Below are positions 1-19,954 of a stretch of 19,954 bases of DNA, in pieces; the first letter of the stretch is position 1; the number at the start of each line of letters is the position of its first letter. Both the position numbers and the translations under genes were made by a program. Under the pieces are notes generated by a model. It saw only the letters and a program-made list of their open reading frames with translations, searched no databases and was not told where the DNA came from. Source of the DNA: a virus (Duplodnaviria; Heunggongvirae; Uroviricota; Caudoviricetes). The stretch lies in the IMG/VR virus record IMGVR_UViG_2534681899_000007; one strand, 5' to 3'.

Positions 1-1284
1 TTACTTCTTCGCCTCTGCAACCACTTTACTACCCACGCCGCGGTTATTGTATTCCCACATGCGGTTGTAGTTAGTGTCATTCAGATTGCGCTGTATTTCG
101 TCGTTATCATCTACGCTGCCGGTATTACCCGCAAACGGACGATTAGAGATCACCGCATCGGCCCACGGTTTAGCCGTGTTAAAACCTTCGTTGATGGCGC
201 TATCACGGATCACCACCTGACCGTTGGTATTGGCATCAACATCCAGCGAGCGGCCCAGTTGCGCCACACCATCACCGAAAGCATTGAAACGGCTGTTTAC
301 GGCGAGGAAACCGTAGTAAATGTTGGACAGCGTAGCCGGTGCAAACACATACGCTTCTTGCTGAGTACGTGAGTTCACCACGCGGAATTCGGTGTTATCG
401 AACACCACTGCGCCGCGACCAGAAACGATATCCACATCCCCTTCAATGTAGCTGTTGGTCACCAGCGTACGCGGCTGACGGTTGGTTTCCAGACGGTTCT
501 GCACACCGCTGTTGGTGACAAAGAAGGTGTTCTGACGACCGAGAATGTTAACGTTGTTAATCTGTACCTGGTCACCATCAGTACGCAGTGCCACCGCCGG
601 ATGGTTACCTGCATCTACGCTATCGCCCAGCGTGTTTTCGATGGTCAGATTTTGCAGTTGCAGGCCATTGTTTTGTGACCAGAAGACCGCAGAGCAGAGA
701 ACACCGATACTGTCGCTGCGTTTGCTCTGGCAGCTATCGTACATATACCACGCTGGTTTACCTGGCATATATTTGCCGCGCGGGTTGACGTCGTGACGCC
801 AGTCGGCAGGGCTCATGCCACCATCAAGGGAAAGCCCAATCTTCACATCAATCGGTTTTTCACCTGTACCGTACAGAGTAATTCCACCCGGAGCGGCAGG
901 GACATATACCGTTCCCTGATACTCACCAGGCATCACGGCAATATACTGGCGCTTGTTGGTACGCTTGATAATTGCCGCATCTACCGCCGCCTGAATCGTG
1001 GTATGCGTTACACCTTGAGTGCCCGCCGGGCCGACAACAAAGTCAGGTTGCGCAGGCAGGGTAATCGGGGAAGGATTCCACGCTGCAGCACCTGGTGTCA
1101 GGGATGCAAAATAGTGTTGAGCATCGAAATTCTGCGCTTCTTTTGCCGACAGAATCGGGCGAGAAGAGGTACCAGGCGCGGTTTGATCAGAAGGACGTTG
1201 ATCGGGCGGGGTTGAGCTACAGGCGGTCAGCGTCACGCCAAAAGCCAATGCCAGCGCCAGACGGGAAACTGAAAATGTGTTCAC
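1..1284 (-). CDS. ybhC: YbhC-type outer-membrane lipoprotein (pectinesterase-like acyl-CoA thioesterase family); chromosomal gene flanking attB(lambda)
   Basis: Complete 427-aa ORF with an N-terminal signal peptide and lipobox (LTAC). The sequence is recognised as E. coli YbhC, which lies next to the lambda attachment site in the gal-bio interval. Confidence 0.88.
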   Translation of the reverse strand: MNTFSVSRLALALAFGVTLTACSSTPPDQRPSDQTAPGTSSRPILSAKEAQNFDAQHYFASLTPGAAAWNPSPITLPAQPDFVVGPAGTQGVTHTTIQAAVDAAIIKRTNKRQYIAVMPGEYQGTVYVPAAPGGITLYGTGEKPIDVKIGLSLDGGMSPADWRHDVNPRGKYMPGKPAWYMYDSCQSKRSDSIGVLCSAVFWSQNNGLQLQNLTIENTLGDSVDAGNHPAVALRTDGDQVQINNVNILGRQNTFFVTNSGVQNRLETNRQPRTLVTNSYIEGDVDIVSGRGAVVFDNTEFRVVNSRTQQEAYVFAPATLSNIYYGFLAVNSRFNAFGDGVAQLGRSLDVDANTNGQVVIRDSAINEGFNTAKPWADAVISNRPFAGNTGSVDDNDEIQRNLNDTNYNRMWEYNNRGVGSKVVAEAKK

Positions 1285-1330: not shown

Positions 1331-1422
1331 GCTTTTTTATACTAAGTTGGCATTATAAAAAAGCATTGCTTATCAATTTGTTGCAACGAACAGGTCACTA
1401 TCAGTCAAAATAAAATCATTAT
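1331..1422. other. attL (B-O-P'): 15-bp core GCTTTTTTATACTAA (1331-1345) plus P' arm with IHF site and Int arm-type sites
   Basis: Exact lambda core sequence. Bacterial-type B half (CCTGC) lies to the left and phage P' sequence (GTTGGCATTATAAAAAAGCATTGCTTATCAATTTGTTGC) to the right. IHF-like TATCAATTTGTTG is at about 1370-1382; arm-type repeats CAGGTCACTAT, CAGTCAAAAT and AAAATCATTAT are at 1391-1422. Confidence 0.9.
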
Positions 1423-2489
1423 TTGATTTCAATTTTGTCCCACTCCCTGCCTCTGTCATCACGATACTGTGATGCCATGGTGTCCGACTTATGCCCGAGA
1501 AGATGTTGAGCAAATTTATCGCTTATCTGCTTCTCATAGAGTCTTGCAGACAAACTGCGCAACTCGTGAAAGGTTGGCGGATCCCCTTCGAAGGAGAGAC
1601 CTGATGCTTTTCGTGCGCGCATAAAATACCTTGATACTGTGCCGGATGAAAGCGGTTCACGACGAGTAGATGCAATTATGGTTTCTCCGCCAAGAATCTT
1701 TTTGCATTTATCAAGTGTTTCCTTCATTGATATCCCGAGAGCATCAACATGCAATGTTGTTGGGATGGCAATTTTTACTCCTGTTTTGCTTTGCTCGACA
1801 TAAAGATATCCATCTACGATATCAGACCACTTCATTTCGCATAAATCACCAACTCGTTGCCCGGTAACAACAGCCAGTTCCATTGCAAGTCTGAGCCAAC
1901 ATGGTGATGATTCTGCTGCTTGATAAATTTTCAGGTATTCGTCAGCTGTAAGTCTTGATCTCCTTACCTCTGATTTTGCTGCGCGAGTGGCAGCGACCGG
2001 GTTTGTTGTTATATGGCCTTCAGCTATTGCCTCTCGGAATGCATCGCTCAGTGTTGATCTGATTAACTTGGCTGACGCCGCTTTGCCCTCGTCTATGTAT
2101 CCATTGAGCATTGCCGCAATTTCTTTTGTGGTGATGTTTTCAAGTGGAGCATCAGGCAGACCCCTCCTTATTGCTTTAATTTTGCTCATGTAATTTATGA
2201 GTGTCTTCTGCTTGATTCCTCTGCTGGCGAGGATTTTTTCGTAGCGATCAAGCCATGAATGTAACGTAACAGAATTATCACTGTTGATTCTTGCTGTCAG
2301 AGGCTTGTGTTTGTGTCCTGAGAATAACTCAATGTTGGCCTGTATAGCTTCAGTTATTGCTATCCTCCTGTCTCGGCCTAATCCAAACTCTTTACCAGTC
2401 CTTGGGTCCCTGTAGCAGTAATATCCATTGTTTCTTATATAAAGGTTAGGGGGTAAATCCCGGCGCTCATGACTTCGCCTTCTTCCCAT
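1419..2489 (-). CDS. int: Integrase, tyrosine recombinase (lambda Int, essentially identical)
   Basis: 356-aa ORF beginning MGRRRSHERRDLPPNLYIRNNGYYCYRDP and ending RDDRGREWDKIEIK, matching lambda Int as recalled. Its 3' end overlaps the P' arm as in lambda. Confidence 0.97.
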   Translation of the reverse strand: MGRRRSHERRDLPPNLYIRNNGYYCYRDPRTGKEFGLGRDRRIAITEAIQANIELFSGHKHKPLTARINSDNSVTLHSWLDRYEKILASRGIKQKTLINYMSKIKAIRRGLPDAPLENITTKEIAAMLNGYIDEGKAASAKLIRSTLSDAFREAIAEGHITTNPVAATRAAKSEVRRSRLTADEYLKIYQAAESSPCWLRLAMELAVVTGQRVGDLCEMKWSDIVDGYLYVEQSKTGVKIAIPTTLHVDALGISMKETLDKCKKILGGETIIASTRREPLSSGTVSRYFMRARKASGLSFEGDPPTFHELRSLSARLYEKQISDKFAQHLLGHKSDTMASQYRDDRGREWDKIEIK

Positions 2490-5425: not shown

Positions 5426-5601
5426 ATTGCATTCAGATATTTGTTTTGATTTACTGATGGAAAAGAATTTCTCTTAAGCAATTCCTCTCTCGATGGCATT
5501 GGCTTTACGCGTTGGCGAATAATCATTTCTGCCGGAAGAATGCCGGGATTGTATGCAAGTCCTCTCATGGTAAATTCCTCAGTCATTACTGATAGCGCCA
5601 T
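5404..5601 (-). CDS. Small hypothetical protein (65 aa, possibly starting at an internal Met)
   Basis: ORF fills the gap between two operon genes but overlaps both neighbours by about 22 nt. Coding status uncertain. Confidence 0.35.
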
Positions 5602-5875
5602 AGCGTGAGCGGTAATTACGCAGGCGCGGGTCGATATATTCAGGGAAGTGGGTATATGTGGCTTTGCGGAATGGTCGGATTGATGTTTCGTTTATTCGGT
5701 CTTTTTCCTGTTTTTCTGCGAGTTGTATATCGCGTCGGCACTTCCGTTCTTCTTTTGTTTCTGGTGGCAGAGCAAGAAACGCGTCGAGATTATTCTTGAT
5801 ATTTTCCAGCACCTCCGATACGGAATTGCCGGAACAGCGGCGCGGGTCATCCGCACCATACAGAGGCGCTGGCAT
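5579..5875 (-). CDS. Hypothetical protein (98 aa), basic
   Basis: ORF directly downstream of the exonuclease remnant in the same leftward orientation. No family recognised. Confidence 0.5.
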
Positions 5876-5891
5876 GGTTTTCTCCTGTTGA

Positions 5892-6164
5892 TTATTTAGC
5901 TAACTTTTTCCAGATCGCTGAAACGTATTTGGCTTGGTGAATGGCATCATCAAGCGCGTTGTGGCGAGTTCCTTTGAATGACATATCTCGCTTAGGGTCG
6001 AATCCTATTACCTTCCCAAGTTCGACGATTGTTCTTACGTCGCGGTCATTCCACCACTGCCACGGAACTGGCTGCCCTGTCAGCGAATAACTGTTTCGGA
6101 GAATAACGCAGTCAAATGATGCTCCATTCCCCCAAGCCGAAAGCAGACCGCAACGACCTCGCAA
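5892..6164 (-). pseudogene. DnaQ-like (DEDDh) 3'-5' exonuclease, C-terminal fragment (5'-truncated)
   Basis: Contains Exo II-like ([10 protein letters not shown]) and Exo III-like (HNALDDAIHQAKY) motifs, but the Exo I (DxE) region is absent. The upstream part of the ORF overlaps the helicase fragment on the opposite strand. Confidence 0.6.
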
Positions 6165-6553
6165 TTGCTCACATCTCCGGAAGCCTGAAGGCGATGGCGA
6201 AAGACCTGAAAACGCCGGTTATCTCCCTGAGTCAGCTTTCACGCGATGTTGAGAAGCGACCAAACAAACGCCCGACAAACGCAGATTTGCGTGATTCAGG
6301 AAGCATTGAACAGGACGCAGACTCAATCATCATGCTCTATCGGGAAGCTGTATATGACGAGAACAGTAGCGCCGCGCCATTTGCTGAAATCATTGTGACG
6401 AAAAACCGTTTTGGCTCACTTGGTACGGTTTACCAGCGGTTCTGCAACGGACACTTTGTTGCATGTGACCAGGATGAAGCCAGACAGATTTGCACAGCAT
6501 CAAATGCACCCGCTGCACGTGGAAGACGATATGCACAAGGGGCTGACGTATGA
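6116..6553 (+). pseudogene. DnaB-family replicative helicase, C-terminal fragment (5'-truncated)
   Basis: [45 protein letters not shown]...[16 protein letters not shown] matches the C-terminal RecA-like region of DnaB-type helicases (E. coli DnaB: [46 protein letters not shown]). The N-terminal roughly 300 aa are absent; an in-frame stop lies at 6104-6106. Confidence 0.75.
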
Positions 6554-6581
6554 CCGTCTACATCACTGAGATAATAACAGG

Positions 6582-6609
6582 GGCTATTTACACAGTAGCC
6601 CTTTTTTAT
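6582..6609 (+). terminator. Hairpin plus T-run (putative intrinsic terminator) at the helicase/terminase junction
   Basis: GGGCTA...TAGCCC stem followed by TTTTTTATT. Confidence 0.4.
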
Positions 6610-6637
6610 TGGATTAAGAACGAGGGGGATTCCTACG

Positions 6638-7270
6638 ATGGGTAGTGGTCGAATCTTCCAGATACCGGAAGAGACGATTAAGTGTCAGCCGTTCGAGTGT
6701 CCTGATCACTTCTACGTAATTGGTGGGATGGATTTTGGATGGGATCACCCACAGGCGCAGGTTCAGCTTTGGTGGGATAAGGACGCAGACACAATCTACG
6801 TTTCACGCGTGTGGAAGGCGAAAGAAAAAACAGCTGTTCAGGCATGGGGAGCTGTTAAATCATGGGCGCATAAAGTGCCAACCGCATGGCCTCATGACGG
6901 AAACCAGCATGAGAAGGGCGGCGGTGAGCAGCTCAAAGGGCAGTACGCGGACGCTGGTTTTATGATGTTGCAGGAGCATGCGACATGGCCTGATGGCGGT
7001 AACGCTGTGGAGCCTGGAATCACTGAATTGCGCGACATGATGCTTGATGGTCGCTTCAAAGTATTCAACACCTGTGAGCCATTCTTTGAGGAGTTCCGCC
7101 TCTATCACCGTGATGAAAACGGGAAGATCGTCAAGCTTAACGACGACGTGCTATCCGCCGTTCGCTATGCATACATGATGCGCCGCTTCGCCAAAATGAT
7201 GCGCGACATCAAAAAACCAAAAGAGAAAAAGATACCAGCCCCAATCAGGCCCATCGCACGGAGAACTTAA
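6638..7270 (+). pseudogene. Terminase large subunit, C-terminal nuclease-domain fragment (ATPase domain missing)
   Basis: 210-aa ORF with RNase-H-like nuclease-domain features (VIGGMDFGWDHP ... DDVLSAVRYAYMM). Its stop overlaps the portal start (TAAATG), as for P22 genes 2 and 1. An in-frame stop at 6596-6598 leaves no room for the ATPase domain. Confidence 0.7.
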
Positions 7271-8863
7271 ATGGCCGACGAAAACAGACTCAATTCCATT
7301 CTGTGTAAGTTTGACGCGGACTGGATGGCGAGCGATGAAGCCAGAACCGAGGCGACAAATGACCTGTATTTTAGCCGAGTGTCGCAATGGGATGACTGGC
7401 TATCAAACTACACTACCCTGCAATATCGCGGACAATTCGATGTTGTTCGCCCGGTGGTCAGGAAGCTGGTCGCAGAGATGCGCCGTAACCCTATCGACGT
7501 TCTCTTCAGACCAAAAGACGGAGCTAATCCTGATGCTGCCGATGTGTTGATGGGAATGTATCGTACCGATATGCGCCATAACACGGCAAAAATTGCCGTT
7601 AACGTTGGCGTTCGTGAGCAGATAGAGTCCGGCGTTGGTGCATGGCGTCTGGTCACACAGTACGAAGACAACGATCCAACAAGCAACAACCAGGTAATCA
7701 GACGCCTGCCAATCCATGAAGCCTGCTCACACGTCATATGGGACGCCAACAGCAAGCAGATGGATAAGAGCGACGCTAAGCACTGCACGGTGATTAACGC
7801 CTTGTCGCGCAATGGCTGGAAAGAGTTCGCAGAGGATTACGGTATTGATCCGGACACCTTGCCATCTTTCCAGAATCCGAACGATACATGGCTGTTTCCG
7901 TGGGTATCGAATGATGTCGTCTACGTCGCTGAGTATTACGAGGTCGAAGAGAAGAAAGAGAAAGTCTTCATCTACCGCGACCCGCTGACAGGTGAGCCGG
8001 TAAGCTATTACCAGCAGGATATCAAAGACGTCATCGACGACCTGGCTAATCGTGGATTCATTAAGGTAGCAGAGCGCAAGGTGAAGCGTCGGCGTGTGTA
8101 TAAGTCGATCATCACCTGTACGCAGATACTGAAAGACCGCGAGAAGATAGCCGGAGAGCATATTCCAATCGTTCCAGTGTATGGTGAATGGTCATTCGCT
8201 GGTGACAAGGAGTGCTACGAAGGAGTGGTAAGGCTGACGAAAGACGGTCAACGCCTTCGTAACATGATCATGTCGTTCAACGCCGATATTGTTGCTCGTT
8301 CACCGAAGAAGAAACCGACCTTCTTCCCTGAGCAAATCGAAGGCTACGAATACATGTACGGTGGAAATGATGACTATCCGTACTATCTGCAGAACAGGAC
8401 CGATGAAAACGGTAACGACCTGCCGATTGGTCCAATCTCCTACATGGAAAACCCTGAAGTGCCGCAAGCCAACGCTTACATGCTTGAGGCAGCCACCAAC
8501 GCAGTGAAAGAGGTGGCTAGTCTTGGAGTGGATGCGCAGGCGGCAAATGGTCAGGTCGCTTTCGATACCGTCAATCAACTGAACATGCGGGCAGACCTTG
8601 AGACATACGTGTTTCAGGATAACCTGGCTACCGCAATGCGACGTGATGGCGAGATTTATGCCTCAATGGTCAACGATATTTATGACGTTCCTCGCCATGT
8701 AACGCTGACTCTTGAAGACGGAAGCGAGAAAGACGTTCAACTCTACGCGCAAGTTGTAGATTATCCAAACCGTATGCCTGTTGGTAGCGGTAACCAGTTG
8801 GCGAAGTGGAACGGTTGGAATTACTTCCACCGGAAGGAACCTTGCGATAACGGGAGCGAATAA
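7271..8863 (+). CDS. Portal protein (P22 gp1-like), C-terminally shortened or chimeric: 530 aa versus about 725 aa
   Basis: N-terminal roughly 490 aa closely resemble P22 portal as recalled ([18 protein letters not shown]..., [13 protein letters not shown]..., [22 protein letters not shown]...). The last roughly 35 aa do not, and the ORF stops immediately before gp10. Confidence 0.8.
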
Positions 8864-15421: not shown

Positions 15422-15811
15422 TTAACATTTTCTTTTTACTTTTCCAACAAAAGCTTTGGTTGAATCCATATTCCCATAACCAGAAATGGTTTTCGACATT
15501 AAAACTGTTCCATTAGGATGTATTACCCATGAGTCGATAACTCGTTGAGTTTCGCCATTCGCGCCGATTCCAATGATGGAGTTTTTAGACAATGCTTTGT
15601 AAGCCATGCCGCCCGCATCCGTCCCAGAATATGTGATACTGGCATCTTCACCGTTTGTCTTAATGATGAATGTTCCACTAAAACCATCTTCTTCCGGTTG
15701 AAAATTATTTCGTTCTGAATAGCTTATTCCGTGCATATCTCCAACGACCCAGCACTCTGCTGAGACAGAAAACGAGAAGACAAGGAAAGCCATTGCTATA
15801 ATCAATTTCAT
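15422..15811 (-). CDS. Small Sec-exported protein (129 aa), beta-rich, Cys near both ends of the mature chain; moron in the mnt operon
   Basis: Signal peptide MKLIIAMAFLVFSFSVSA with cleavage after SVSA. AAGGG Shine-Dalgarno 5 nt upstream of the ATG. AT-rich relative to flanking phage genes. Lies 15 nt downstream of the other moron ORF. Confidence 0.65.
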   Translation of the reverse strand: MKLIIAMAFLVFSFSVSAECWVVGDMHGISYSERNNFQPEEDGFSGTFIIKTNGEDASITYSGTDAGGMAYKALSKNSIIGIGANGETQRVIDSWVIHPNGTVLMSKTISGYGNMDSTKAFVGKVKRKC

Positions 15812-15826
15812 TTTAAGCCCTTATTG

Positions 15827-16162
15827 TTATTGATTCTTTTTGCACGGAAATGTTTTTCCTACTGCTAGGGCGGTTAGTATAACTGCACTCTCATTTCTTG
15901 ATTCTGGGTTTTTGTTTAGATATTTCTCAACGATATCGGTGTATTGATACATGTCAACGCCATCAGGAGGACATAGAGAACCAATTAGTATCAATGAGTC
16001 AGTTACTCCGCGCAAATATCCAGTAATGTAAAGCGATGAAAAATCATCACCCTTTTTACCTTGTTGAATGTTGTAAAGAAGGTCATTACCCGTTTGAAGC
16101 TCGCGCAGCTCAGCACTGGAAGAAGAGACAACTGCTAACAAGAACAGTGATAGAAATCTCAT
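15827..16162 (-). CDS. Small Sec-exported protein (111 aa), probably helical with 2 Cys; possible Rap1a/Tai4-like periplasmic immunity-type fold (tentative)
   Basis: Signal peptide MRFLSLFLLAVVSSSSA. Its start codon overlaps the mnt stop (ATGA) and an AAGGA Shine-Dalgarno lies inside the mnt 3' end. Mature part contains ...GYLRGVTDSL...SLCPPDG...ILTALAVGKTFPC. Confidence 0.65.
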   Translation of the reverse strand: MRFLSLFLLAVVSSSSAELRELQTGNDLLYNIQQGKKGDDFSSLYITGYLRGVTDSLILIGSLCPPDGVDMYQYTDIVEKYLNKNPESRNESAVILTALAVGKTFPCKKNQ

Positions 16163-16413
16163 TTCAAATCCTTTTCATAAATCTTTTTAAGTGTCTCAAA
16201 CACTATAGCCTTGAACTGCTCAGCCTGCTGATCAGCCAAGCGTTCAGCTTCGTCGCGATATCCTGTAATCGGTGATGGTTTTGATAGTGCATCCTGAACG
16301 ATTTGTAATAACTCAGAGTTCATTGACCTTCCGTTAGCCTCGGCTCTTAATTTCAATTTTTCTCTTACTTCCAAAGGCATACGGAAGTTAAAGTGCGGAT
16401 CATCTCTAGCCAT
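16159..16413 (-). CDS. mnt: Mnt repressor (P22 immI maintenance repressor, ribbon-helix-helix)
   Basis: MARDDPHFNFRMPLEVREKLKLRAEANGRSMNSELLQIVQDALSKPSP... is nearly identical to P22 Mnt as recalled. Transcribed divergently from arc/ant. Confidence 0.93.
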   Translation of the reverse strand: MARDDPHFNFRMPLEVREKLKLRAEANGRSMNSELLQIVQDALSKPSPITGYRDEAERLADQQAEQFKAIVFETLKKIYEKDLK

Positions 16414-16435: not shown

Positions 16436-16487
16436 TTGACATGATAGAAGCACTCTACTATATTCTCAATAGGTCCACCGTGGACCT
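16436..16487. promoter_or_regulatory. immI control region: Pant (-35 TTGACA 16436-16441, -10 TATATT 16459-16464), Arc operator (16441-16461) and Mnt operator (16471-16487), with divergent Pmnt overlapping
   Basis: ATGATAGAAGCACTCTACTAT matches the P22 arc operator. AGGTCCACCGTGGACCT is a perfect 17-bp palindrome matching the P22 mnt operator. Confidence 0.85.
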
Positions 16488-16503: not shown

Positions 16504-16665
16504 ATGAAAGGAATGAGCAAAATGCCACAGTTCAATTTGCGGTGGCCTAAAGAAGTATTGGATTTGGTACGCAAGGTGGCGGAAGAAAATGGTCGGTCTG
16601 TTAATTCTGAGATTTATCAGCGAGTAATGGAAAGCTTTAAGAAGGAAGGGCGCATTGGTGCGTAA
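16504..16665 (+). CDS. arc: Arc repressor (53 aa, ribbon-helix-helix)
   Basis: MKGMSKMPQFNLRWPKEVLDLVRKVAEENGRSVNSEIYQRVMESFKKEGRIGA matches P22 Arc. The longer track ORF from 16441 starts inside the operator and is rejected. Confidence 0.93.
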   Translation: MKGMSKMPQFNLRWPKEVLDLVRKVAEENGRSVNSEIYQRVMESFKKEGRIGA

Positions 16666-16667
16666 AG

Positions 16668-16733
16668 TTGAAGCCCCAACTGCTGTAACAGTCAGGGCTT
16701 CGGCATCAACAAATCGGATTAGGAAATATTGAC
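16668..16733 (-). ncRNA. sar: Candidate sar-like antisense RNA covering the ant ribosome-binding site (tentative)
   Basis: P22 encodes a small antisense RNA (sar) across the arc-ant intercistronic region. Here a minus-strand TATACT -10 overlaps the ant start and a GAAGCCC...GGGCTTC hairpin lies at 16666-16702. Confidence 0.35.
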
Positions 16734-17612
16734 ATGAAAAGTATAGCAAAGGCACAAAACGATTTCACCATCTTCAAATTCGGCGACAGTGAAATCCGCG
16801 TCATCAACAAGTGCGGTGAGCCGTGGTTTGTAGCTAAAGATGTTTGTGATGCTTTAGATTTGACTAACTCACGCAAGGCGCTTACTGCACTTGATGACGA
16901 TGAAAAGGGAGTAACTTTAAGTTACACCCTTGGTGGTGAGCAGAATCTAAGCATTGTGAGCGAATCAGGTATGTATACATTGGTTCTGCGCTGCCGCGAT
17001 GCAGTCAATAAAGGTTCAGTCCCGCACAAATTCCGCAAGTGGGTAACAGCAGAAGTTCTGCCTTCAATTCGCAAACATGGCGAGTATGTAAAAGGAAAGA
17101 AAACCACTGTTGAGGAAAGAACACCGCTACGCGATGCAGTAAACATGCTGGTAGGAAAGAAAGGACTTCGCTATGACGATGCATACAATATGGTTCATCA
17201 GCGTTTTGGTATTGACAGCATTGATGAACTTTCAATTGAACAAATCCCGCTGGCCGTAGAGTACATCCACAGGGTAGTGCTTGAAGGTGAGTTCATTGGC
17301 AAACAAGAGAAGAAAACCAACTAGCTTTCTGCAAAAGAAGCAAACAGCCTTGTATGGTTATGGGATTATGCCAACCGCTCACAGGCATTATTCCGCGAAC
17401 TGTATCCGGCGCTAAAACAAATTCAATCGAACTATTCCGGCAGATGCTACGACTACGGTCATGAATTCTCGTATGTTATCGGAATGGCGAGAGACGTTTT
17501 AATAAACCACACACGAGATGTTGATATCAATGAGCCAGACGGACCAACGAATCTTTCCGCATGGATGAGACTTAAGAATAAAGAATTACCTCCTTCAGTA
17601 CATAACTACTGA
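16734..17612 (+). pseudogene. ant: Antirepressor Ant (Bro-N domain) interrupted by an in-frame amber codon at 17322-17324
   Basis: 196-aa N-terminal ORF with a Bro-N-like motif ([16 protein letters not shown]). After the TAG the same frame stays open for 95 further codons to TGA at 17610-17612, giving about 292 codons in total; P22 Ant is about 300 aa. Confidence 0.75.
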
Positions 17613-17630
17613 CAGATAACCAACGCAACG

Positions 17631-17656
17631 ACCCAGCTTCGGCTGGGTTTTTTTAT
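17631..17656 (+). terminator. Intrinsic terminator downstream of the full-length ant frame
   Basis: ACCCAGC-TTCG-GCTGGGT hairpin followed by TTTTTTT. Confidence 0.7.
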
Positions 17657-17713: not shown

Positions 17714-19954
17714 ATGACAGATTCAATAAATGCCAATGTTGTGGTAAGCATGCCTTCGCAACTCTTCACTATGGCGCGTTCTTTTAAAGCGGTTGCCAAT
17801 GGCAAAATTTATATCGGTAAAATTGACACTGACCCGGTAAATCCTGAAAACCAGATTCAGGTTTATTTAGAGAACGAAGACGGCTCTCACGTTCCTGTAT
17901 CGCAACCAATCATCATTAACGCTGCTGGTTACCCGGTATATAACGGACAGATTGCCAAATTCGTTACTGTACATGGCCATTCTATGGCTGTTTATGATGC
18001 GTACGGTGCTCAGCAGTTCTATTTTCCTAATGTGTTGAAGTATGACCCTGACCAACTCAGGCAAGATCTTGCATCTCAAGGCGGTGTTAATCTGGTAAAC
18101 GGAGCTATCTCACAGGAAGATCTTGTTTTGCAGTCGATCACAAAAATCCCAAGTTATGATAATTCTAACGTAGTCCAGGCGTGGCGCGATAGTGTTGCTA
18201 CCTACGGGTATGTTTACTTTTCTAATCATTCAAAAAATCAGATGGTGTACACCGTACCGTCTACAGCTGCTAACGCTTCTTCCCTTGCGAACAGTAAAGT
18301 AATCATTGATAAAAATGTCACCCTGAGATTCGACAGTGATCTGTACTCACTGTTTAAATCGTTGCAGTACGAGGGGGAGGGTACGTTTGAATTTACGCAC
18401 CTGAACTTTAAAGCAACCGGTGGAGAAGTGGATTACCTGGCTAAGCAGGCCATCCTCAACCGAAACCCTATTCGCATGAAGCGAGTGGAATGGTCAGATT
18501 GTAAAGTTTATTCCATAAATGGTGACACGTTCTTCTATGAAGGTGAAGTCACCATATCCTCAGATAGCGCAGCTGTCGTCGCCTTAACTACTAACTATGC
18601 AACAGGCCTGTTCGCACCAATAGATATTGGTGAGCATATTTCTGCACATATTCGCATGGAATCTCAGGCCGCCTCAGAAGTTGGGATTGTTCTGCGATGC
18701 TCTGGTGGTTGGATGATGTTCTATGGGGCACCAGGTGCTACACAGTGGTCTTATAGACAGAAACCAATTGGTGGTCCAGTAGCAGAAGGAACTCCATTCC
18801 CGCTGCCAGGAGGTTTACTGTCGTACGCCCCGGGCAAAGCAACCGTTGGCGTATCACTGCAAGGTAAAAACTGGGCGCAGATAACGATGAATGGCGTTGG
18901 GATACGTTTGCCCTTTGATACTGGTGATGTAGGGGATGTATACGAAGTTGGGTTTGTTGCACTGACCCCGGCATCTGGAGGTTCTGCGCGAGTAACTGGA
19001 TTATGCAGCTACACCTCTGATAATGGCGTGCACGGTAAGCCTCCACTTAATATCCTTATCCACGGTGATAGTACAGCTGAGGATTTCATTTCCGCGTTCA
19101 GCTCGTACATTCCGCAATTAATGGATGGAGCGAACGGCCACCGTTCATATAGCCTTGTAAACAAGGCGGTTGCCGGACAGACAATGAGGCAACAGTTAGA
19201 TCTCCTGAAGGCTCAGGGGCCGGGTGATGCTTACATCGTTATTATGGTTGCCGGAACTAACGAAGGGCAGGCAAACCAAAACGGCGATTATATGGCGGCA
19301 CTGATAGATGAGTTTGTCTTATATTGCAATGGCCTTGGTCGTATCCCTGTTTGGGTTGAGCCGTGGATGTGGTATAGCCAGTCATTTATTGGAGGGGCTG
19401 GTCAGCCATCTTCTAACTACGACGGTGTCGCAGAGTTGCGAGAAGCTGGTAAACGCCAGATGATGAAATATGGCAATAACGTCATTTGTGTAACAACAAC
19501 TCACCAGCTCCCGGCCCCATATCCAGAGTATTTCAACACGCAATACGACCCACTTCTGCGTGATGACATTCACCAAAGCCAGTTAGGGTATCGTCTGTAT
19601 GCGGAAATTATCTGCTCTGCCATTATCGACTGGTGGTCGCGTGTTGATTACACGCCAAGAGCAGCTGTTCAATGGTGGGCTGGAACAAACGTAACAGTAC
19701 AGGCACCGTCAAGTTTAACTGCCAATTCAATTAATATTAAACTGGCAGCCACTTCATTTGCGAATGGCAATACTGTTCTAACGCTTCCGAGGTGGTGCAG
19801 ACCAAAAGTAACCAAAAATGTCCCTGTACCGTTCACTGCTGATGGCGTTTCATTTGGTATGGCAATGGCCACCATTAATGCTTCAACAGGACAAATATCG
19901 ATTGAAGGGTCCACAACTACATCTCCAACGTTCTACATAGATGCGACATGGTAG
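17714..19954 (+). CDS. Tailspike: P22-type head-binding N-terminal domain fused to a different receptor-binding region containing an SGNH/GDSL hydrolase-like domain
   Basis: N-terminus [35 protein letters not shown]...NVLKYDPDQ resembles the P22 gp9 head-binding domain. The downstream sequence is unrelated to the P22 endorhamnosidase and carries GDS (19064-19072), GTNE (19253-19264) and DDIH (19562-19573). Start chosen at the ATG after a GGAG Shine-Dalgarno, not at 17693. The stop is the last codon of the window. Confidence 0.88.

Follow-up and report, generated by a model that had tools for sequence, protein, structure and literature searches.

The question raised by this locus was how to read a P22-type antirepressor gene (ant) that stopped at an amber codon and whose frame continued beyond it: as a naturally short antirepressor, as a gene still decoded to full length, or as one recently broken. 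The gene was found in a stretch of 19,954 nucleotides (IMG/VR virus record IMGVR_UViG_2534681899_000007), which was analyzed as a whole and is called the window below. A preliminary description, made from the letters alone, had favored a recent nonsense mutation in an Ant protein of roughly 300 aa. The frame given there was recovered from the sequence and its translation: 196 codons preceded the TAG, a further 95 codons were open up to a TGA (17610–17612), and a terminator followed. When the TAG was counted as sense, the 879-nt frame comprised 292 sense codons. Coordinates of the features are collected in Table 1.

Table 1. Positions of the features in the window, with strand and supporting evidence.
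Feature	Position	Strand	Description	Basis
ybhC	1–1284			
int	1419–2489			
Lesions from abc2 to terminase	5579–7270		abc2 (Anti-RecBCD), DnaB_C fragment and terminase fragment, adjoining in this order	
DnaB_C fragment	6116–6553			
Terminase C-terminal fragment	6638–7270		large subunit, residues 283–497 only	
Portal-gp4 in-frame fusion	7271–8863	+	530 aa; portal aa 1–498 plus C-terminal ~35 aa of gp4	tblastn vs P22 proteins; Pfam P22_portal, partial
129-aa ORF	15422–15811	−	hydrophobic N-terminus	no Pfam match
Rap1a/Tai-family gene	15827–16162	−	"ant moron" gene	Pfam PF18602
mnt	16159–16413	−	84 aa, Mnt repressor of Pant; intact	Pfam Arc/Repressor_Mnt
Pant/Pmnt	16436–16469	+/−	overlapping divergent promoters: Pant 16436–16464 (+), Pmnt 16469–16441 (−); Arc and Mnt operators	promoter scan, P22 alignment
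arc	16504–16665	+	53 aa; intact	WP_000677939.1 in relatives; ~97% identical to P22 arc DNA
sar	16666–16732	−	antisense RNA gene, full length	Rfam RF00262, 65.6 bits (gathering 43), E = 7.6e-12
ant ORF, truncated	16734–17324	+	ATG at 16734; 196 codons, then TAG (17322–17324)	sequence and translation
Lesion	17322	+	T here, G in orthologues; GAG (Glu197) > TAG	base-by-base comparison with L001–L003
ant remnant, untranslated	17325–17612	+	P22_AR_C module, 95 codons plus TGA	identical to intact allele; Pfam P22_AR_C
ant terminator, intrinsic	17630–17656	+	hairpin 17630–17649, 8-bp stem (5 GC), GAAA-type 4-nt loop, T7 run	
Tailspike gene	17714–19954	+	window ends at its stop codon	Pfam Head_binding (P22-type)

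The stop was traced to a single G>T transversion in the first base of codon 197, which was the sole difference from the ant gene of E. coli strain C across the 879 nt. Among complete E. coli genomes, the top DNA matches were 99.9% identical, and their annotation gave the frame as an intact gene (WP_000835339.1, "phage repressor protein/antirepressor Ant", 292 aa). From gp16 to the ant terminator (~4.5 kb), the window and the strain C copy were separated by two substitutions, the second of them synonymous, and the nonsense mutation is therefore very recent. Because it is young, the downstream frame and the terminator look preserved. No further decay was seen in the 288 nt that follow the TAG, which is uninformative either way, since only ~0.1 substitution is expected there at the observed divergence. 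The terminator folded at −14.5 kcal/mol (z = −2.4) and lay in the same place as the annotated P22 ant terminator.

The stop interrupted a conserved domain that was complete in otherwise identical orthologues, and a restart capable of rescuing the missing C-terminal part was not found before codon 251: the first in-frame ATG, GTG or TTG after the TAG was at 17484 and left just 42 aa. Both observations mark the gene as a pseudogene. The 95 residues encoded after the TAG matched Pfam P22_AR_C (E = 7e-28), so the downstream open frame is not due to chance. In the conceptual read-through product this domain spanned residues 192–264, and the stop fell inside it, at about position 6 of the 73 in the profile. 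Almost all Ant homologues were 288–304 aa long, with Bro-N and P22_AR_C fused, and together with the single-base difference from the orthologues this bore out the preliminary description in taking the gene for a recently mutated Ant of about 300 aa and not a naturally short one. A search of the post-TAG part against 1.84 billion representative proteins gave two kinds of close match, C-terminal ends of longer proteins and fragments cut off at contig edges that have no Met; stand-alone versions of it might be represented by just two distant proteins (34–35% identity, 110–121 aa).

Alignment divided Ant into three modules: Bro-N (aa 20–110), a middle module (aa ~125–192), and a C-terminal module from residue ~193. 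The N-terminal module was swapped at about residue 120, being Bro-N here, KilA-N in the relative P0112, and P22_AR_N in P22. The middle module was common to the window Ant and P22 Ant, and in both proteins the C-terminal module was P22_AR_C. The TAG was located 4–5 residues past the mosaic junction at which alternative C-terminal modules are swapped in. An AlphaFold model of a 97%-identical intact protein, of modest confidence (mean pLDDT 65.6, pTM 0.33), was used for domain segmentation alone. In this model, the stop fell at the end of a predicted disordered linker (187–196), ahead of a helix (200–229); the low-confidence linkers (119–124 and 187–196) coincided with the mosaic junctions, and the C-terminal helical module was the best predicted part. 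Since the TAG is at the end of the linker, ahead of the P22_AR_C module, the 196-aa product keeps Bro-N, the middle module and the linker, and lacks the entire C-terminal module.

A PDB sequence search with the read-through protein returned no homologue (best hit CorA, E = 0.21, noise), and when the AlphaFold model was compared with PDB structures by Foldseek, nothing matched at E ≤ 0.001. The weak matches to APSES/Mbp1 were not significant, so the fold of Ant allows no functional inference. In the literature, neither an experimental mapping of functions to Ant domains nor a solved structure was found.

Several groups of related proteins were observed alongside the closest homologues. Four relatives (P0092, P0084, P0088 and P0127; 292–314 aa) were 92–99% identical to Ant over the first ~193–213 residues and carried unrelated C-terminal modules of ~100 aa without a Pfam match; these ends appear to be alternative C-terminal modules of the antirepressor family. 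Four longer relatives (P0075–P0078; 401–483 aa) had Bro-N and P22_AR_C followed by Prok-JAB and NlpC/P60, resembling lambda tail protein K; they probably reflect either a deletion that fused ant to a tail gene or an error of gene calling. Other "Ant" entries of 185–202 aa, such as P0132 from TW06591, were considered as independent truncations at this site and rejected. Their allele is a different one (…EKSTN), the majority bear the label partial, and the spread of their lengths, judged at the protein level, is what contigs ending in a repeated module would give. Hundreds of short-read contigs (P0123–P0135) ended within Ant residues ~185–202, and P0123 (187 aa) alone was present on 819 contigs. 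A likely cause is that the C-terminal module is repeated among the prophages of one genome. Partial entries of the P0123–P0135 type can thus mimic truncated Ant proteins in databases.

The distribution of the amber allele was determined with a 63-nt query centered on the TAG. This stretch was present in 558 of 5,426 complete E. coli genomes, none of which had the exact TAG context (best matches all 62/63); the closest relatives read GAG, and other isolates do carry a sense codon here, a point that the preliminary description had proposed to check. An exact-pattern scan of one-genome-per-species representatives yielded no TAG context, which excludes the allele from species-representative genomes only. 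In homologues, the position was occupied by Glu, Asp or Ser, and a stop codon is thus not conserved there as it would be at a recoding site. Assemblies in NCBI, ENA and Logan provided 39 contigs with the exact 196-aa product, named for E. coli KTE90, KTE91 and others, and an exact protein look-up placed the intact 292-aa Ant on 668 contigs. The TAG was present in ten of ten fetched related loci (L004–L013) from independent NCBI, ENA and Logan assemblies, and this recurrence excludes a sequencing artefact. One scaffold (KB733082.1, GCA_000352485.1) was 100% identical to the window.

The gene belongs to an element inserted between ybhC and ybhB-bioA, i.e., at the lambda attachment site, with a lambda-type integrase and P22-like structural genes. 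As abc2 abuts the DnaB_C fragment, the immC region (c2, cro and the replication initiator) must have been deleted, which agrees with the earlier claim that the c2 region is missing. Likewise, the DnaB_C fragment abuts the terminase fragment, and so nin, Q, the lysis genes and gp3 are gone; the portal-gp4 fusion entails the loss of the scaffold and coat genes. With these losses, the element is clearly a dead, multiply deleted P22-like prophage. The deletion junctions were near 5876–6116, 6626–6634 and 8747–8863, with BLAST segments overlapping by 9 nt at 6626–6634 and by 2 nt at the two others, and these overlaps suggest that microhomology mediated the deletions. The defective prophage of E. 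coli B at the lambda attachment site was considered as a source of the element and rejected, no complete E. coli genome covering more than 68% of the window.

For every TAG copy that was read, the carrier was this same defective P22-like element, inserted at the lambda attachment site. All these copies shared the portal-gp4 fusion, and the immC deletion was found in every copy whose fetched locus reached the left side (L008, L009 and L010). Later deletions differed and produced no fewer than four architectures, against a background of 6 SNPs or fewer in ~12 kb: L011 and L012 still had the nin genes, Q, the lysis genes, rha and both terminase genes, the lysis genes and gp26–gp7 were lost in L008, L004, L007 and L013, and gp10–gp7 in L010 and L006. 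From the shared lesions, and from deletions that differ amid so few SNPs, it follows that the TAG has been inherited within, and marks, a single clonal E. coli lineage (KTE90/KTE91-like), in which deletions are whittling the prophage.

In the window and in all related loci the gene order was gp16, two moron genes, mnt (−), arc (+), ant (+) and tailspike. The mnt DNA was identical to that of the strain C gene (WP_000090234.1). Pant and Pmnt scored 11/12 and 10/12 in the promoter scan, and their region was almost identical to the annotated promoter/operator region of P22; over Pant, Pmnt, the operators, arc and the sar terminator hairpin the identity to P22 was ~97%. By position, regulatory elements and homology, the gene would count as a bona fide member of the P22 immI/ant type. 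In an intact phage with a module of the P22 type, the prophage produces Mnt, which represses Pant; Arc is an autoregulator acting on the same promoter, the sar antisense RNA damps translation of ant, and Ant acts by binding the primary C2-type repressor, which it inactivates.

Some further observations were made on the surroundings of ant. The Mnt operator differed from that of P22 by a G>C change of the central base at the dyad center and by one flanking change (16479, 16488), and the half-sites were the same. The Rap1a/Tai-family gene encodes a protein with a type VI secretion immunity-protein fold; together with the adjoining 129-aa ORF it occupies the place of sieA in P22. A T6SS-immunity homologue carried as prophage cargo may deserve attention of its own. 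In the tailspike, the P22-type head-binding domain was followed by ~630 residues without a Pfam match. The part similar to the tailspike of strain C stopped at 18048, and of the 19 differences from strain C, 17 were clustered in 17758–18035, which indicates a mosaic boundary after the head-binding domain.

Taken together, the locus is very probably explained by a recent loss-of-function nonsense mutation (GAG>TAG, codon 197) in a silent ant gene of a multiply deleted, non-inducible P22-like prophage, that is, by neutral decay. Translation would stop at the end of the linker and yield the 196-aa protein of Bro-N and middle module, and the C-terminal module could not be made separately. With c2, cro and the head genes lost, and mnt, arc and sar intact, Ant lacks a target in cis and is presumably silent. 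By analogy with P22 biology, Mnt would keep Pant repressed in the prophage state. Under such conditions ant would be silent and useless, and the nonsense mutation could have drifted to fixation by descent in the lineage. The truncated product has probably lost antirepressor activity.

The same mutation could instead have been fixed by selection, if Ant that leaks from a remnant without a cognate repressor, or is made there under stress, trans-induces co-resident lambdoid prophages or is toxic; hosts with a knocked-out ant would have been favored, and the stop would then be a step of domestication. This is unlikely, if not far-fetched: only two substitutions occur in 4.5 kb and one of them creates the stop in ant, whereas roughly 4–5% of random substitutions are expected to create stops, which is mildly suggestive, and the rest of the right-arm genes of the remnant are intact. 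Trans-acting antirepressors that induce other prophages are documented (PMC3121763), and a disturbance of P22 development by Ant overproduction is cited as background in PMC12111858. On the other hand, the intact mnt, arc and sar should hold ant off, an intact ant is kept in strain C and many other remnants, and the inactivation was a single event in one clonal lineage, with no recurrence. A stable and functional 196-aa protein, acting as a DNA-binding regulator or, in dominant-negative fashion, as a decoy for the Ant brought in by P22-like phages on superinfection, is less probable still. The stop does fall exactly at the linker and leaves two complete modules, which are self-contained and occur with unrelated C-termini (P0092, P0084). 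However, no complete natural homologue was found with these two modules alone, the entries of ~185–202 aa being contig-edge partials, and the allele occurs in a single clonal lineage only, where the prophage is dead. If such a protein were nevertheless a functional derivative retained by the host, the gene would not be dead.

That full-length Ant is still made by reading through the amber codon, by programmed recoding or a host suppressor, is hardly credible. The earlier remark that the allele would be suppressible in supE/supF hosts is formally true, as of any amber codon, but nothing suggests that it is relevant here. The interference with a co-resident or superinfecting P22-like phage, which the same description had raised, is likewise speculative. 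The preserved frame and terminator, which would fit read-through, follow from the mutation being young. As the TAG is absent from all 558 complete genomes that have this stretch, it does not mark a conserved recoding site, and the window contains no tRNA gene. Amber suppressors are rare in natural E. coli isolates. An equally negligible chance is left to a sequencing or assembly artefact, or to a naturally short ant followed by a separate gene. Short-read assemblies often break near this point, but the identical TAG was obtained across projects, years and pipelines. As for a separate gene, the downstream segment lacks a start and completes a Pfam domain whose N-terminal end lies before the stop, and the close homologues are all fused and continue past this position; the preliminary description had named a natural end here, with a gene of its own downstream, as what would contradict it, and this was not what the homologues displayed. 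Neutral loss of function by a recent nonsense mutation is therefore retained as the preferred explanation.

Beyond annotation, the finding matters little: ant ought to be labelled a pseudogene interrupted by an internal amber codon rather than a short "antirepressor". The lineage does offer a tidy example of prophage decay, in which a shared TAG, portal-gp4 deletion and, where the contigs reach, immC deletion can be set against at least four later deletion patterns. The TAG allele is also a natural truncation at a module boundary and is usable for asking which module of Ant carries the antirepressor activity.

Among known systems, the closest in organization is the immI region of P22, in which Ant inactivates the C2 repressor non-covalently and is controlled by Mnt, Arc and sar (PMC2629481, PMC12111858). 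The position of ant matched that in P22: gene 16 and the tailspike gene enclose the module, arc precedes ant, and mnt points the other way. When the conceptual translation, with the TAG read as sense, was aligned to Ant/Bro-N antirepressors, as had been proposed at the outset, residues 122–292 were 85% identical to residues 130–300 of P22 Ant (E = 6e-114). The window differs from P22 in its N-terminal module (Bro-N instead of P22_AR_N), in the TAG at codon 197, where P22 has Asp205, and in the state of the element, which is a dead prophage in E. coli, integrated at the lambda attachment site and equipped with a lambda-type integrase. The nearest intact counterpart, WP_000835339.1 (E. coli strain C, SJC33 and many others), has the same mnt, arc and moron flanks as the window, but reads GAG (Glu) at codon 197 and keeps the full P22_AR_C.

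Loss of ant is not new. Degraded ant genes have been described in the P22-like phages HK620 and Scho1 (PMC2629481), phage L has no functional immI (PMC8022706), and the "ant moron" is regarded as high-flux and dispensable, with repeated loss or degradation of ant (PMC2629481, PMC8022706). In HK620, Scho1 and phage L, ant was degraded by deletion or rearrangement and the phages are still viable, whereas the window has a clean single-base nonsense mutation in an element that was already defective. Module shuffling is likewise known from the Bro-N network (PMC10111431), and the Ant family of the window resembles it in having alternative N- and C-terminal modules joined at fixed junctions; the TAG merely happens to adjoin one of these. 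The feature is thus already known in kind, as ordinary decay of a prophage gene.
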